A stretch of 4,976 nt of DNA from a virus (IMGVR_UViG_2648501400_000010); one strand, 5' to 3'; shown: positions 68 to 4,954, numbered from the stretch's first letter. Notes: generated from the sequence alone by a model not told the origin. Program-made: numbers and translations.

Positions 68-1030
68 TTACCCCCTGAAGCCCGGCGGAATTTCAGTGTC
101 CGGTTCAGAAATGTGATTCACGCAACGCTGCGCAGGCGAACGCCCCAGGCGGATAACCAGTTCATCCCATTTTTCCCGGAGTTTTGCCGGACTCATGATG
201 TTTTTTACCCAGAACGAATCCCGCTGGAGACGCCCAAACATTTCACAAATTTGTCTGTGAGTTCTGCCATCCAGCATCCGCATTGTGCGAACGTCATTGG
301 CCCATGCTGTCCAGTTGGGTTCTTTCGGTCTAGTGATCTCGCCATCATCGCTGGCCGCCTGCTCGTAAAGACTCACGATTCGTCCCCAGATCCACTGTGC
401 GCACACCAAATCTTCCTGACTTCCCCACTGGCGTTTTTTCGCACTGAACACAACCGCGTCAGGGTGTCGGGTTAAAAAATCCTGTTCAGCCGTCTGCGGG
501 TCCGGTTGCGAAGCGTCCGGACAAGAAGATCTTTTATCTGACGGATCAGGTTTTAATACTGACGGATCGGGGTCAATCATCGCCCCCCTAATCGGCAGTT
601 TTTTATCAACAGTTGATCCATCAAAATTTGACGGGTCAACCGTTGAGGGGTCAATATTTGACGGGTCAACTGTTAACGGGTCATTTTTTGCCGGGCTAAT
701 TTTTCTTTTTGGTTTATATGACTCACGCGCCGCCGCCGCAGCTGCTTCGAGTTTTTCCACATTAAGCCGATAGATATTGCTTACATTACGCCCACCGACC
801 TTACGCTCTTCCTTCGTCAGCCAGCCCTCTTTCGCCAGTTCTGCAATAGCCGATTTCACTGTGGATTCACTTCTTGCACCGATCTGACGCCGGATAGTTT
901 CAATGGCAGGCCATGACACGCCCTCGTCATTGCTGTAGTCTGCAAGACGGGCCATAACCGCCACCCTGGATAAGATCATGCCGGTGAAGGCGCACCCTTC
1001 CCAGACAAGACCATGAAGCTTGCTGCTCAT
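68..1030 (-). CDS. Phage replication initiation protein, lambda O-like role (N-terminal winged-helix/HTH domain, repetitive linker, C-terminal domain)
   Basis: Long ORF in the track (68..1045, which starts at GTG). I prefer ATG at 1028-1030 (MSSKLHGLVW...) preceded by a G-rich SD. The N-terminal region (ILSRVAVMARLADYSNDEGVSWPAIETIRRQIGARSESTVKSAIAELAKEGWL) looks like the HTH domain typical of phage replication initiators. The gene sits where O (ydaU in Rac) sits, after the cro-like and cII-position genes. The linker encodes DPS(N/T)(V/I/F) pentapeptide repeats that coincide with the DNA iterons. Confidence 0.8.
   Translation of the reverse strand: MSSKLHGLVWEGCAFTGMILSRVAVMARLADYSNDEGVSWPAIETIRRQIGARSESTVKSAIAELAKEGWLTKEERKVGGRNVSNIYRLNVEKLEAAAAAARESYKPKRKISPAKNDPLTVDPSNIDPSTVDPSNFDGSTVDKKLPIRGAMIDPDPSVLKPDPSDKRSSCPDASQPDPQTAEQDFLTRHPDAVVFSAKKRQWGSQEDLVCAQWIWGRIVSLYEQAASDDGEITRPKEPNWTAWANDVRTMRMLDGRTHRQICEMFGRLQRDSFWVKNIMSPAKLREKWDELVIRLGRSPAQRCVNHISEPDTEIPPGFRG
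615..704. repeat. Phased 15-bp iteron array (consensus GACGGGTCAAnnTTT), candidate phage origin of replication embedded in the initiator gene
   Basis: Five tandem in-phase units at 630, 645, 660, 675 and 690 (gacgggtcaaccgtt / gaggggtcaatattt / gacgggtcaactgtt / aacgggtcatttttt / gccgggctaattttt). A degenerate in-phase unit lies at 615-629, and further copies at 540-554 (gacggatcaggtttt, in phase) and 567-581. Each unit ends in a T-tract, and an AT-rich stretch follows at 705-722. Confidence 0.7.
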
Positions 1031-1052
1031 AAAACCCCCGAACACCGTGCTT

Positions 1053-1478
1053 TTAGTGCATCACCACAGCATTCCCTGCCGGGCCGCCGCGATTCATCTG
1101 GTCATACAAAACAACCGCTGACGCAACAAAATCATCGACATCCTTCACCAGCCGATCCCTCCGTTCGACGATCTCACGGTAATATTCAGAACTGTGGCTG
1201 CGCATACGGGCCACCAGCAAAGGCGGCATCGCCTTTTCGATCGCCGGTAACAGAGCCTGCATTTTTTCAACAGCATCAGGGGTGTCCTTCTCCACCCAGC
1301 GGAAAATTTTCTGGGTATTACGGGCCAGGGCTTCCGGATGGCTGTCGTCGTACAGTTCCGGGAACGTCATTCCCAGCTCGAAATACGCTTTGGTAATTTT
1401 CGCAGCCGGTACTTTTTCGCCGTCCGGGTGCGCCCAGACATTCATCGCCATGCGGATGTGTTCATGCTTGATTTTCAT
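1053..1478 (-). CDS. ydaT: YdaT-family protein (CII-position regulator / toxic protein of Rac-type prophages)
   Basis: 141-aa ORF starting MKIKHEHIRMAMNVWAHPDGEKV, which I recognise as the YdaT family of Rac/CP-933P prophages (from memory, not a search). SD GGGGGTG lies upstream of the ATG (complement of 1476-1478). It is immediately downstream of, and overlaps by 17 nt, the Cro-like gene. Confidence 0.85.
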   Translation of the reverse strand: MKIKHEHIRMAMNVWAHPDGEKVPAAKITKAYFELGMTFPELYDDSHPEALARNTQKIFRWVEKDTPDAVEKMQALLPAIEKAMPPLLVARMRSHSSEYYREIVERRDRLVKDVDDFVASAVVLYDQMNRGGPAGNAVVMH

Positions 1479-1737
1479 GAATCACCCCCGCCTCTGGTTG
1501 TGTGTTAGCCTGATACTCGACAGGTAAGCCGTCGGTTGGGTTGGGATAAGTACTGCCATCAATCTCGTGCGGAGTTACTATCCAGCCTGTTGCTTCGCAC
1601 CAGCGTAAAATTTTTTTCCCCGTAAGTTTCGCCCGTCCGGTAATGACATGGCTTACCATCCCTTGGGTTACCCCAACAATTTCAGCAAAATGCTTCTGAG
1701 TTATACCGGAATGATGCAAATATTCTCCAAGATTCAT
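1462..1737 (-). CDS. ydaS: Cro-like HTH DNA-binding protein (YdaS family)
   Basis: 91-aa ORF with a Cro/CI-type helix-turn-helix (QKHFAEIVGVTQGMVSHVITGRAKLTGKKILRW). SD AGGTGA (complement of 1741-1746) is 3 nt from the ATG. It is divergently transcribed from the repressor gene, the classic cro position. Confidence 0.8.
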   Translation of the reverse strand: MNLGEYLHHSGITQKHFAEIVGVTQGMVSHVITGRAKLTGKKILRWCEATGWIVTPHEIDGSTYPNPTDGLPVEYQANTQPEAGVIHENQA

Positions 1738-1844
1738 TGTTCACCTCATGTGATGTCATCACGATCATTAATAGCATTGTTATTTTTAAAAGTAAATAGC
1801 ATCACTATTTCAAAGAGATTAATAATCTTATTAGAATTGAAGGT
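1738..1844. promoter_or_regulatory. Divergent promoter/operator region (OR-like) between the cro-like gene and the repressor gene
   Basis: Perfect 17-bp inverted repeat AAATAG-CATCA-CTATTT at 1794-1810 and weaker copy TAATAG-CATTG-TTATTT at 1769-1785, centres 25 bp apart. Leftward promoter candidates on the minus strand: -35 TTTACT (complement of 1791-1796), 17-bp spacer, -10 TATTAA (complement of 1768-1773). Additional 11-bp palindrome TGATGTCATCA at 1751-1761 near the predicted start. Rightward -10-like AATAAT at 1821-1826 with no good -35. Confidence 0.55.
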
Positions 1845-2345
1845 ATGAAAAGAAAATCCCTGTCAGAGATCGACCTGCAAGCCGCCCAGAGACTGAAAGA
1901 AATCTGGACGGCGAAAAAAAATCAACTAGGGTTAACCCAAGAGCGTGCGGCAGAAATTCTGGGATTTTCGACACAGGGAGCTGTAAGCCATTATCTAAAT
2001 GGTCAGACACCTTTAAATCTTGAGGCTGTTATCAAGTTCGCAGGGTTGCTGCAAGTTCCTCCCGAGTCAATCAGACCAGATATGGCCGAGTTGTTACAAA
2101 TTGTAAGGATGTATCCCCAAGAATCTGGGGAGGACAATGTTGTCACTATATCTGCAGATATGGAACAATCGGAAAACGAACTTCCGTTTAATATAGACCC
2201 CATGGAGCGGGATTTGCTCCAGACGTTCAGGGCTTTCCCCAAAGAAGATAAAGAGAAAATGCTTAAGGAAATGAAGGAGAAAAAAGAATCAATTGAAGAA
2301 ATCGTTGCGCGATGGCTAGCTGCGCAAAAGGGTCGTCGCGCCTAA
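1845..2345 (+). CDS. paaR: Prophage repressor, XRE-family HTH, no peptidase S24 domain (RacR / PaaR-like)
   Basis: 166-aa ORF with an N-terminal XRE-type HTH (LTQERAAEILGFSTQGAVSHYLNGQTP) and an acidic/lysine-rich C-terminus without the Ser-Lys autoprotease motifs of LexA/CI. It sits divergent from the cro-like gene and directly upstream of a small-antitoxin/ParE pair, the paaR-paaA-parE arrangement. The symbol is by architecture only; paralogue 1 versus 2 cannot be told. Confidence 0.8.
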   Translation: MKRKSLSEIDLQAAQRLKEIWTAKKNQLGLTQERAAEILGFSTQGAVSHYLNGQTPLNLEAVIKFAGLLQVPPESIRPDMAELLQIVRMYPQESGEDNVVTISADMEQSENELPFNIDPMERDLLQTFRAFPKEDKEKMLKEMKEKKESIEEIVARWLAAQKGRRA

Positions 2346-2362
2346 TCTGAGGAGGTAAAAAC

Positions 2363-2554
2363 ATGAGTACAGCCCTTTCCCCGATAATTTCTGAATTTGA
2401 AACAGTCGAACAAGAAAACAGCTATAACGAATGGTTGCGAACCAAAGTGGCAGCAAGCCTCTCAGATCCCCGTCCTGCAATTCCACATGACGAAGTAATG
2501 GCTGAAATGGAAAACCTTATTGCTCAATTAGCTGCAACGAACAGGAGTGAGTAA
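2363..2554 (+). CDS. paaA: Small antitoxin of a ParE-type toxin-antitoxin module (PaaA-like, 63 aa)
   Basis: 63-aa ORF with SD AGGAGG at 2350-2355 and a 7-nt spacer. Its stop TAA overlaps the start of the downstream ParE-like gene (TAATG at 2552-2556). Size and position between a regulator and ParE match the PaaA antitoxins. Acidic, low-complexity and probably disordered. Confidence 0.7.
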   Translation: MSTALSPIISEFETVEQENSYNEWLRTKVAASLSDPRPAIPHDEVMAEMENLIAQLAATNRSE

Positions 2555-2844
2555 TGCTGCCCATTTTATGGCTACCTTCTGCACGTGATGATTTACGTCA
2601 GATCGTAGCCTATATTGCTAAGGAAAACCCTCCCGCTGCACGTAGACTAAAAATACGCATTGAAACATCAGTTTTGTCACTTACTGAACACCCTTATCTG
2701 TACCCACCGAGCGAAAGAGTTCCAAGTCTTCGTGAGATAGTGACTCATCCTAACTACATAATACTTTACCGAGTAACAGCATCTAACATCGAGATCGTAA
2801 ATGTAGTTCACTCACGAAGACAGTATCCAAACAAAACCTGTTAA
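2554..2844 (+). CDS. parE: ParE/RelE-superfamily toxin (ParE-like, gyrase-poisoning class)
   Basis: 96-aa ORF (MLPILWLPSARDDLRQIVAYIAKENPPAARRLKIRIETSVLSL...REIVTHPNYIILYRV...IEIVNVVHSRR) with the sequence pattern characteristic of ParE toxins (W near the N-terminus, DL..I..YIA, R.L...I, PY.G/P, REL/REI, Y.I.YRV, IEI..V.H.RR). Translationally coupled to the upstream small ORF. Confidence 0.85.
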   Translation: MLPILWLPSARDDLRQIVAYIAKENPPAARRLKIRIETSVLSLTEHPYLYPPSERVPSLREIVTHPNYIILYRVTASNIEIVNVVHSRRQYPNKTC

Positions 2845-2858
2845 TCCTTCCTGTCAAC

Positions 2859-2882
2859 AACCACCTTCGGGTGGTTTTTTTC
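2859..2882 (+). terminator. Rho-independent terminator after the toxin gene
   Basis: Stem AACCACC (2859-2865), loop TTCG, stem GGTGGTT (2870-2876), followed by a T-run to 2881, 15 nt after the parE-like stop. A T-tract is present only on the plus strand, so it is unidirectional. Confidence 0.75.
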
Positions 2883-2891
2883 TTGCCACGA

Positions 2892-2934
2892 TAATAGCAC
2901 TGCTATTTACATAATTAAATAGTAGTGGTATTGT
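2892..2934 (+). promoter_or_regulatory. PL-like promoter with paired operators for the rightward small-gene operon
   Basis: Operator-like inverted repeat TAATAG-CACTG-CTATTT at 2892-2908 and weaker AAATAG-TAGTG-GTATTG at 2917-2933, centres 25 bp apart. -35 TTTACA at 2906-2911, 17-bp spacer, -10 TATTGT at 2929-2934. Same motif and geometry as the sites at 1769-1810. Confidence 0.55.
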
Positions 2935-3026
2935 TCATTCATCAACTCACCCCGCCCCACAGAACGCCAGGCAATACTTCGAGTTACCCGGCAGTGGTCA
3001 GGGGTTAAGTAGCCAGCCCGAGGCGT

Positions 3027-3269
3027 ATGAACATGACGGCGGGAACACTTTATATAACAGCGCAGCAGTTTTTTAGTTCCGCTACCCCGGCGTTAAGGGG
3101 AAATGAGGTCAACATGGATATGCTCAATCTTGGCAACAACGAATCTCTGGTATGTGGCGTGTTCCCCAACCAGGACGGTACGTTCACCGCGATGACGTAT
3201 ACCAAAAGCAAAACGTTTAAAACCGAAAATGGTGCCCGTCGCTGGCTGGAAAGAAACTCAGGTGAGTGA
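3027..3269 (+). CDS. Small prophage early protein (80 aa from ATG 3027, or 51 aa from ATG 3114); resembles the small YdaF/YdaG-class proteins of Rac
   Basis: ORF in track. ATG 3114 has the better SD (GAGG 3105-3108, 5-nt spacer); ATG 3027 has GAGG with a 3-nt spacer. The 51-aa form (MDMLNLGNNESLVCGVFPNQDGTFTAMTYTKSKTFKTENGARRWLERNSGE) matches the size I recall for Rac YdaF, but I cannot verify identity. First gene after the PL-like promoter. Confidence 0.6.
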   Translation: MNMTAGTLYITAQQFFSSATPALRGNEVNMDMLNLGNNESLVCGVFPNQDGTFTAMTYTKSKTFKTENGARRWLERNSGE

Positions 3270-3669: not shown

Positions 3670-4044
3670 ATGGAATTTAAAGATTTACCAATGCCATTCC
3701 AGGAAATGGCAGCGAATATAGTTCGTTCCCAACTGGCGACTCTTGACCTGAGTACCGTAGAAAAAGAAACCATCGATACTATATCCGGTAACGTGCGTCG
3801 TGCCTTTATCGGTCTGTACGAAGAGAAGCAGCTCTCTGATAACCAGGATTTACATGAAAAATACTTCCTGGAATTAATGGACATCATTAATAAAGGATTT
3901 GGCTTGTTAATGAAAAAGAAAGGGATTCGAATAGCTCCCCTTGAAAATCATTTTACAGCGAGCAGTATTAATTCCTGTGATTTAAAGCATCACACATCCG
4001 ATGGGAAAGTTGAATCAAACAACAAAATATCAATTAATCATTAA
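3670..4044 (+). CDS. Hypothetical protein, 124 aa, AT-rich 3-prime half (possible accessory/moron gene)
   Basis: ORF in track. SD GAGG at 3660-3663 with a 6-nt spacer; 22 nt after the previous stop. No recognisable domain by eye and no transmembrane segment. The C-terminal third is low-complexity and AT-rich (…SSINSCDLKHHTSDGKVESNNKISINH). Confidence 0.55.
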   Translation: MEFKDLPMPFQEMAANIVRSQLATLDLSTVEKETIDTISGNVRRAFIGLYEEKQLSDNQDLHEKYFLELMDIINKGFGLLMKKKGIRIAPLENHFTASSINSCDLKHHTSDGKVESNNKISINH

Positions 4045-4275
4045 TTTATTCACAGGTGAGGTAGAGTGCGTGCGCCGGACACGGATAAGAATCCGGCACT
4101 GACAGTTTACTGAAAAGGATACATCCCTGAAAAGTCAGGGCATAACACGAAAGCGCCCGGCGAGGTAGCTGGTTCATAGATAGCCTGTCGTTAAATTTTT
4201 GTCGACCGTGCGCTTCCGGTTGTGGCAATCCGCGAAATGGCGCGGCGGTAAGTATGGCGGGGTTATTCCTTCCCC

Positions 4276-4335: not shown

Positions 4336-4577
4336 CCCTCTGTTATCAATTTTCTGGTGACGTTTGGCGGTATCAGTTTTACTCCGTGACTGCTCTGCCG
4401 CCCTTTTTAAAGTGAATTTTGTGATGTGGTGAATGCGGCTGAGCGCACGCGGAACAGTTAAAACCAAAAACAGTGTTATGGGTGGATTCTCTGTATCCGG
4501 CGTTAATTGTTAACTGGTTAACGTCACCTGGAGGCACCAGGCACCGCATCACAAAATTCATTGTTGAGGACGCGATA

Positions 4578-4766
4578 ATGGAAACGTTATTACCAAACGT
4601 TAATACGTCTGAAGGTTGTTTTGAAATTGGTGTCACTATCAGTAACCCTGTATTTACTGAAGATGCCATTAACAAGAGAAAACACGAACGGGAGTTATTA
4701 AATAAAATATGCATTCTTTCAATGCTGGCCCGTTTACGTCCGATACAAAAAGGATGCTGGCAATGA
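4578..4766 (+). CDS. Hypothetical small protein, 62 aa (METLLPNVNTSEGCFEIGVTISNPVFTEDAINKRKHERELLNKICILSMLARLRPIQKGCWQ)
   Basis: Internal ATG of track ORF 4473..4766. SD GAGGA at 4566-4570 with a 7-nt spacer; the upstream ATG at 4473 has no SD. Stop overlaps the start of the next ORF (ATGA at 4763-4766). Confidence 0.45.
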   Translation: METLLPNVNTSEGCFEIGVTISNPVFTEDAINKRKHERELLNKICILSMLARLRPIQKGCWQ

Positions 4767-4954
4767 ATACAGCATTTGCACTTGTTCTGACAGTTTTTCT
4801 TGTTTCCGGAGAGCCAGTTGATATTGCAGTCAGTGTTCACAGGACAATGCAGGAGTGTGTGACTGCAGCAACCGAACAGAAAATTCCCGGTAACTGTTAC
4901 CCGGTCGATAAAGTTATTCACCAGGATAATAACGAAATCCCGGCAGGTCTTTAA
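4763..4954 (+). CDS. Hypothetical small protein, 63 aa, with N-terminal hydrophobic segment (signal peptide or membrane anchor) and two Cys
   Basis: In frame with track ORF 4709..4954. ATG at 4763 overlaps the stop of the upstream ORF (ATGA); AAGGA at 4749-4753. Sequence MNTAFALVLTVFLVSGEPVDIAVSVHRTMQECVTAATEQKIPGNCYPVDKVIHQDNNEIPAGL has about 15 hydrophobic residues at the N-terminus. Confidence 0.45.
   Translation: MNTAFALVLTVFLVSGEPVDIAVSVHRTMQECVTAATEQKIPGNCYPVDKVIHQDNNEIPAGL

Follow-up and report, generated by a model that had tools for sequence, protein, structure and literature searches.

What is the pair of small open reading frames (ORFs) that directly follows the repressor gene in the immunity region of a lambdoid prophage, and what role could it have there? 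We addressed this question for a 4,976-nt stretch of viral DNA (IMGVR_UViG_2648501400_000010), hereafter called the window. It is the early-control region of a lambdoid Escherichia coli prophage (Table 1). [quoted passage not shown] It represents another allele of the published paaR-paaA-parE system, placed after the repressor of a lambda-like E. coli prophage. The paaR-paaA-parE architecture was reportedly described by Hallez in 2010, and paaR2-paaA2-parE2 of CP-933P / Sp12 from E. coli O157:H7 is said to have been treated by Sterckx in 2016. In essence, the original prediction for this locus reached the same reading as Hallez et al. (2010) and Jurenas et al. (2021). For CP-933P, published features include the three-gene operon, PaaR2 as a CI analog, an immunity-region location of the TA pair, OL/PL, a leaderless mRNA and addiction (PMC8630535).

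Table 1 Features of the window, in order of position.
Feature	Coordinates	Strand	Basis and remarks
O-like replication gene	68-1045	-	
YdaT, CII-like activator, 141 aa	1053..1478	-	PF06254 YdaT_toxin; phrog_163 'CII-like transcriptional activator', E = 7e-46
Cro/YdaS-like regulator, 91 aa, divergent from repressor	1462..1737	-	Pfam HTH_3; phrog_35, E = 1e-19
OR-like divergent control region	1738..1844		Two 15-bp operators and PRM-like promoter; GC 0.27
OR-like operators	1770-1784, 1795-1809		AATAGCAnnGnTATT palindrome
PRM-like promoter	TTCAAA 1809-1814, TAGAAT 1832-1837		Predicted, motif reading
Repressor, 166 aa, first gene of operon	1845..2345	+	Pfam HTH_3
Shine-Dalgarno sequence of paaA, GAGGAGG	2349..2355	+	Read from sequence; ATG 7 nt downstream
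paaA (antitoxin) ORF, 63 aa	2363..2554	+	Pfam PaaA2, PDB PaaA2 match
AGGAG upstream of parE	2543-2547	+	6 nt before parE ATG
parE (toxin) ORF, 96 aa	2554..2844	+	Pfam ParE_toxin, PDB ParE2 match
Intrinsic terminator closing repressor-paaA-parE	2859..2881	+	7-bp stem, TTCG loop, T-run
OL-like operators	2893-2907, 2918-2932 (within 2893..2934)		AATAGCAnnGnTATT palindrome
PL-like promoter	-35 2906-2911, extended -10 2927-2934	+	Faces ydfA-ydfB-ydfC-dicF-dicB
ydfA, ydfB and ydfC homologs	3' of OL/PL	+	Homology
124-aa ORF (orf124)	3670-4044	+	phrog_6937 of unassigned function
DicF sRNA	4352-4403	+	Rfam RF00039, 76.7 bits versus gathering score 48, full length
dicB	4578-4766	+	
ydfD	4763-4954	+	

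Both predicted proteins were assigned by profile and structure database searches. The acidic PaaA (pI 4.41, with 11 acidic and 4 basic residues) matched Pfam PF21217 (PaaA2) with E = 1e-21 and 77.1 bits (cutoff 27) over profile positions 1-33 of 33, and the PaaA2 chains of PDB entries 3zbe and 5cw7 with E = 2e-22. The basic ParE (pI 9.72) matched Pfam PF05016 (ParE_toxin) with E = 6.6e-18 and 65.5 bits (cutoff 23) over positions 1-89 of 89, and aligned through residues 1-92 with 5cw7_B, ParE2 of E. coli O157:H7 (E = 5e-36, 60 of 92 residues identical). The original prediction, made from the DNA alone, had named an acidic 63-aa ORF and a ParE-family toxin, which these Pfam and PDB matches confirm; the profile searches for the ParE and PaaA families that it had suggested were run, and both families matched above cutoff. 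Its description of the gene arrangement also proved correct. At the TAATG junction (GAG TAA TG), the paaA stop codon (2552-2554) and the parE start codon (2554-2556) have one base in common, and paaA directly follows the same-strand repressor gene, separated from the repressor stop codon by a 17-nt gap that holds the GAGGAGG element.

The surroundings of the pair contain operator, promoter and terminator elements arranged as in a lambdoid immunity region. Four copies of the 15-bp palindrome AATAGCAnnGnTATT start at 1770, 1795, 2893 and 2918, with a spacing of 25 bp in both OR and OL. The motif gave 10 strand-hits versus 0.41 expected, a number reached by none of 200 shuffles. Downstream of parE, the OL-like operators overlap the PL-like promoter, which reads TTTACA-17-TATTGT with TG (2906-2934). 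No terminator lies between repressor, paaA and parE; the sole one starts 14 nt past parE, with the stem AACCACC-TTCG-GGTGGTT at 2859-2876 and a T-run extending to 2881. A strong intrinsic terminator ahead of the PL-like operators had been proposed originally; the element is present and canonical, but its folding energy is only moderately exceptional (-10.4 kcal/mol, z = -2.19, with 7 of 200 shuffles folding as well). Its sequence is specific to the immunity type, being common to the window and locus L006 and absent from loci L002, L004, L009 and L010. In the best-matching complete genomes, the block belongs to prophages with integrase, excisionase and exonuclease genes plus genes for RusA or an antiterminator. 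Because an intact DicF, dicB and ydfD follow 3' of the PL-like promoter, this promoter would drive a Qin-type cell-division-inhibition operon.

Several observations concern the flanks of the immunity region. Between the PL-like promoter and the start of ydfA, the leader (2941-3116) is near-invariant over five heteroimmune loci, while flanking coding DNA is ~77-80% identical. It matched no Rfam family at the gathering threshold, and in its predicted RNA fold a compensatory change was found in one of 41 pairs, with a covariation term of -0.16 from this near-invariant alignment. It may serve the dicBF-type operon as a regulatory or antitermination element, or be a 5' UTR under constraint. Farther downstream, the 124-aa ORF (GC 0.376) is an insertion between ydfC and dicF relative to Qin of K-12; it lacks a Pfam family and is present in only some related prophages, with 89-90% identity in L001 and L004. 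On the opposite side, the O-like gene contains, at ~560-690 on the minus strand, repeated TTTGACGGGTCAAC-type sequences matching a repeated DPS-rich peptide motif. These look like origin iterons inside a replication initiator gene, as in lambda ori.

The location of the pair was compared in the original prediction to the slot that rexAB occupies in lambda, and the operon indeed lies between OR and OL operators. This position raises the alternative that the pair mainly serves to exclude phages or to abort infections, as a functional counterpart of rexAB from which a second phage, on infecting the cell, would release ParE and thereby be stopped. In line with such a role, the pair lies, like rexAB, within the immunity region and 3' of the repressor, with which it is predicted to share a transcript in the lysogen, and prophage-borne TA systems can serve in defense. 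We nevertheless consider it unlikely. No homology of PaaA or ParE to RexA or RexB was detected with Pfam, PHROG or PADLOC, and the equivalence is positional only. At E ≤ 0.01, PADLOC-DB 2.0 yielded 0 families for PaaA, ParE and the repressor, that is, no match to any of its defense models, which leaves the proposed abortive-infection-like role unsupported. Published work on the related system shows addiction and plasmid stabilization and reports no phage exclusion (PMC8630535).

Database names point to another alternative, namely a toxin acting as a ribosome-dependent mRNA interferase of the RelE type, accompanied by a RelB-type antitoxin, as the RefSeq annotation implies. PaaA matched NCBIfam NF050103 ('RelB family antitoxin') with E = 1e-26, and the toxin reached 27.6 bits with TIGR02385 (RelE_StbE), just below the cutoff of 27.9. 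This assignment is very improbable in view of the sequence of both partners: ParE2, with which the toxin shares 65% identity, colocalizes with the nucleoid and induces the SOS response (PMC8630535), and the 63-aa antitoxin matches the PaaA2 model over its full length and has no DNA-binding domain, as no HTH, RHH or AbrB family was matched among Pfam and NCBIfam profiles. Independently of this question, the name 'RelB family antitoxin' used for PaaA in RefSeq and NCBIfam is misleading for a protein that lacks a RelB-type DNA-binding domain. A comparable case is YdaT, which databases name a 'toxin' and which published work describes as a CII-like activator that is not toxic.

The repressor is the third component of the system. 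Residues 2-90 align with the N-terminal domain of lambda CI (PDB 1lmb, E = 1.5e-9), while residues 123-166 correspond to the PaaR2 C terminus (24 of 44 residues identical, 55%; E = 3e-16). The region spanning residues 91-166 is 54% identical to the repressor of L002, and the C terminus is also distantly similar to that of DicA (E = 1.5e-7 and 2e-5). Pfam matches were to HTH families only, with no S24/LexA-type autocleavage domain. PDB searches with the window and L002 repressors returned only lambda CI, the 434 repressor and HipB-type HTH proteins and no solved PaaR-type C-terminal domain. Literature on PaaR2, DicA and octamer provided nothing useful apart from the mBio paper. By sequence, the repressor is modular, with a lambda-CI-like HTH joined to a PaaR/DicA-type C-terminal domain.

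At least four repressor types were present over the loci examined: the 166-aa lambda-CI-like protein of the window, a 133-aa 434-like type, a type of 132-135 aa and the 123-aa PaaR2. They differ in their N-terminal domains and have the C-terminal signature LLQxFxAFPxED...KKxSM...ARWLAAQKxRRA in common. The Cro-like proteins of the window (1462-1737), L002, L004 and L010 show differing HTH N termini and a common C-terminal tail (VTPHEI..YPNPTDGLP....N......IHENQA), a pattern that mirrors the modular one of the repressors. The lambda-CI-like DNA-binding domain of the window repressor represents the sort of heteroimmune replacement or divergence that lambdoid phages typically show, and regulatory details may differ from those of PaaR2 because the DNA-binding domains are not homologous in sequence. 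At the DNA level, no homology between the window and L002 was found from 1553 to 2214, a segment that covers the Cro N terminus, OR and the repressor N terminus; the OL/PL stretch is, like the terminator, specific to each immunity type. As both flanks are immunity specific, the conserved block comprising the repressor C terminus, paaA and parE sits between them, inside the immunity region. The match to the paaR-paaA-parE type put forward in the original prediction therefore stands for gene order, profile matches, immunity-region context and the PaaR2-like C terminus, but the relationship of the regulator to PaaR2 is confined to the final ~45 residues: nothing outside residues 123-166 could be aligned, and homology of the DNA-binding domain was the only hallmark of the family (profile, architecture and context being the others) that was not found.

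We surveyed complete E. coli genomes and viral contigs for the pair and its repressor. PaaA/ParE-like DNA was detectable in 842 of 5,426 complete genomes, with the window's variant (90% identity or more) in 70. We found the window's repressor type in 72 of the complete E. coli genomes, and 72 records covered at least 80% of a joint repressor-plus-TA query; the pair adjoins the repressor in each of the 72 genomes. Presence/absence polymorphism, that is, this repressor without the TA pair, was looked for and not encountered among these 72 genomes. The repressor C-terminal domain, PaaA and ParE were likewise found together in all 80 IMG/VR loci examined. A deposited phage genome, Escherichia phage Evi (LR597642.1), carries paaR2-paaA2 plus an intact parE2. 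In this record (L011), the ORF at 3786-4064, directly after the annotated paaR2 and paaA2 homologs, is identical to ParE2 and unannotated.

Between alleles, dN was 0.05-0.10 with synonymous sites near saturation (saturated for the TA alleles of the window versus L002), corresponding to dN/dS ratios of 0.07-0.11 for paaA and 0.03-0.04 for parE where dS was estimable. Ratios of at most 0.11 indicate that both genes are maintained by strong purifying selection, and the near-saturated synonymous sites indicate old allelic lineages. That the pair is a decaying, non-functional remnant riding passively in a cryptic prophage, for which one might cite that many such prophages are defective and that ParE2 activity went undetected in single cells (PMC8630535), is extremely improbable given that neither ORF is disrupted and the two Shine-Dalgarno sequences are kept, that dN/dS is 0.03-0.11 despite synonymous sites near saturation and that the pair persists in 72/72 genomes and 80/80 viral contigs of this architecture as well as in phage Evi. 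In E. coli prophages, at least four immunity types carry the TA pair as a fixed component under selection.

The pair had initially been suggested to be a moron acquired separately from the flanking replication genes, on the basis of a local drop in GC content. The GC values of the pair (0.42-0.44) are below those of the O-like and ydaT genes (0.52-0.54), but the repressor (0.45), cro (0.47), dicB (0.37) and orf124 (0.38) are similarly low. The dip is thus not specific to the pair, and we rejected GC content as specific evidence for a moron. The part of the claim that concerns capture fared better, as an old event is supported by free-standing pairs and by the TA-less Qin prophage. Among one-genome-per-species representatives, we found free-standing PaaA-ParE pairs (L012-L047) that are 43-78% identical to that of the window in the alpha- and betaproteobacterial groups Bartonella, Acetobacteraceae, Sphingomonadales, Rhodobacterales and Burkholderiales. 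Their antitoxins measure 57-66 aa, their upstream neighbors are unrelated to one another, and no PaaR-type C-terminal domain was found upstream of these pairs. Both PaaA C-terminal tail types (the PaaA1/window type and the PaaA2 type) are present among them. With both types occurring outside E. coli, there is a hint that the two E. coli TA lineages may derive from separate captures.

Insertion of a PaaA-ParE cassette into a lambdoid immunity region has already been suggested in the literature (PMC8630535), and this idea is supported by the free-standing pairs together with Qin, where dicA directly precedes ydfA. Such comparisons are somewhat better grounds than GC content for capture of a free-standing PaaA-ParE cassette. 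They support a capture that would be old and fixed within each immunity type, with no recent variable acquisition.

From these data and the published systems, a working model can be outlined by analogy. In the lysogenic state, repressor, paaA and parE would be co-transcribed from the PRM-like promoter as a leaderless mRNA, with transcription predicted to end at the terminator before PL. The leaderless reading, drawn from paaR2 and cI, is based on the -10 element, which ends 7 nt before the repressor ATG. The repressor would contend with the Cro-like protein for the OR and OL operators, while YdaT would act as the CII analog. PaaA is expected to wrap and neutralize ParE. For system 2, degradation of PaaA2 by ClpAP/ClpXP, SOS induction and plasmid stabilization have been demonstrated (PMC8630535). 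If PaaA of the window were similarly labile to the ClpAP and ClpXP proteases, a cell losing the locus would be poisoned by leftover ParE, with DNA damage or SOS induction as the result, and the host would be addicted to the immunity region and hence to the prophage. In single cells, no ParE2 activity was seen in either transcriptional state (PMC8630535). Gyrase inhibition has been shown for several ParE toxins and was reported as negative for ParE2; since ParE2 is reported not to bind GyrA59, the label 'gyrase poison' should not be assumed for the window toxin, and the gyrase-dependent readout named in the original prediction is uncertain.

An extension of this model, which we put forward as tentative and rather doubtful, is that the TA pair enforces the whole immunity cassette by killing recombinants that swap in a TA-less immunity region. 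Each heteroimmune lineage would then keep its own co-diverged paaA-parE allele. The same idea was proposed for CP-933P in 2021 (PMC8630535). The pair lies between two immunity-specific segments and was not lost from any immunity type examined, a comparative pattern that is consistent with the enforcer idea without proving it. In addition, the pair could conceivably exclude superinfecting phages in the manner of RexAB.

The locus is a further, heteroimmune member of the published paaR-paaA-parE family. Its repressor keeps the PaaR C-terminal domain and has a DNA-binding domain of the lambda CI type, and its 15-bp operators are new. Outside annotation, the locus matters little; the comparisons also flag the misleading database names given above for PaaA and for YdaT.

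The locus can be compared with several known systems. Classical parDE modules from RK2, Vibrio cholerae and Caulobacter have the ParE fold in common with the window, as well as an antitoxin whose short helical or disordered region wraps the toxin. They differ in that ParD binds DNA through a ribbon-helix-helix domain and controls its own operon, whereas PaaA lacks such a domain and the prophage repressor is the regulator. Lambda cI-rexA-rexB is organized like the window: in the lysogen, the cargo genes share the PRM transcript of the repressor, as is predicted for the window, and they lie between OR and OL and are followed by a terminator before PL; the N-terminal domains of lambda CI and the window repressor are homologous. 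In contrast to lambda, the window repressor has no RecA-cleavable C-terminal domain, and the cargo is a TA pair rather than a two-component exclusion system. Qin of E. coli K-12 also has a divergent cro-like gene and a repressor gene (dicC and dicA), followed by ydfA, ydfB, ydfC, DicF and dicB, and is ~95% identical to the window at the DNA level from position 3075 onward. In Qin, ydfA follows dicA after 166 bp with no TA pair, which makes it an architectural empty site. Its use as a DNA-level empty site for insertion boundaries was ruled out, as homology starts only at 3075; with the repressor genes (dicA in Qin) unalignable as DNA, no insertion boundary can be drawn.

Among the closest known systems are those of E. 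coli O157:H7. As a reference for paaR2-paaA2-parE2, we used locus L009 from an O111:NM genome, which is authentic in that its repressor starts with MQKKE as published and its antitoxin and toxin are identical to the PDB chains. Like the window, the CP-933P / Sp12 system consists of three co-oriented genes in identical order between OR-like and OL/PL-like regions; the cro-like and ydaT genes are divergent from them, and dicB lies downstream. PaaA2 and the window PaaA both lack a DNA-binding domain, PaaR2 and the window repressor both lack an S24 peptidase domain, and in both systems the PRM geometry fits a leaderless mRNA. YdaT of the window and of L009 are 99% identical. Divergence is seen in the TA proteins (65% identity for ParE versus ParE2, 70-72% for PaaA versus PaaA2), in the C-terminal third of PaaA (VMAEMENLIAQL in the window, VERRMAERFAKM in PaaA2) and in the operators (AATAGCAnnGnTATT in the window, GTTTAGTAA-type repeats as published for CP-933P). 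In addition, paaA and parE overlap by 1 nt in the window and are 1 nt apart in L009.

The TA lineage closest to the window is L002 (WP_000986592 / WP_000536233 / WP_001303876), the other O157:H7 locus, which was equated by elimination with paaR1-paaA1-parE1 of CP-933M. ParE is 88% and PaaA 84% identical between the two; over the L002 and L004 alleles, PaaA identity is 84-87%. L002 differs from the window in its repressor, which has 133 aa and a 434-repressor-like HTH versus 166 aa, and in the Cro N terminus, OR, terminator and OL/PL, all of which are unrelated in sequence. Both loci have the PaaA C-terminal tail type (VMAEMENLIAQ...), the TAATG-type overlap, the repressor C-terminal domain and the downstream ydfA-dicB operon in common. 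PaaA1 and PaaA2 were reported not to cross-neutralize (PMC4803016). Given this lack of cross-neutralization and its L002-type PaaA tail, the window pair probably belongs to the system-1 specificity class.
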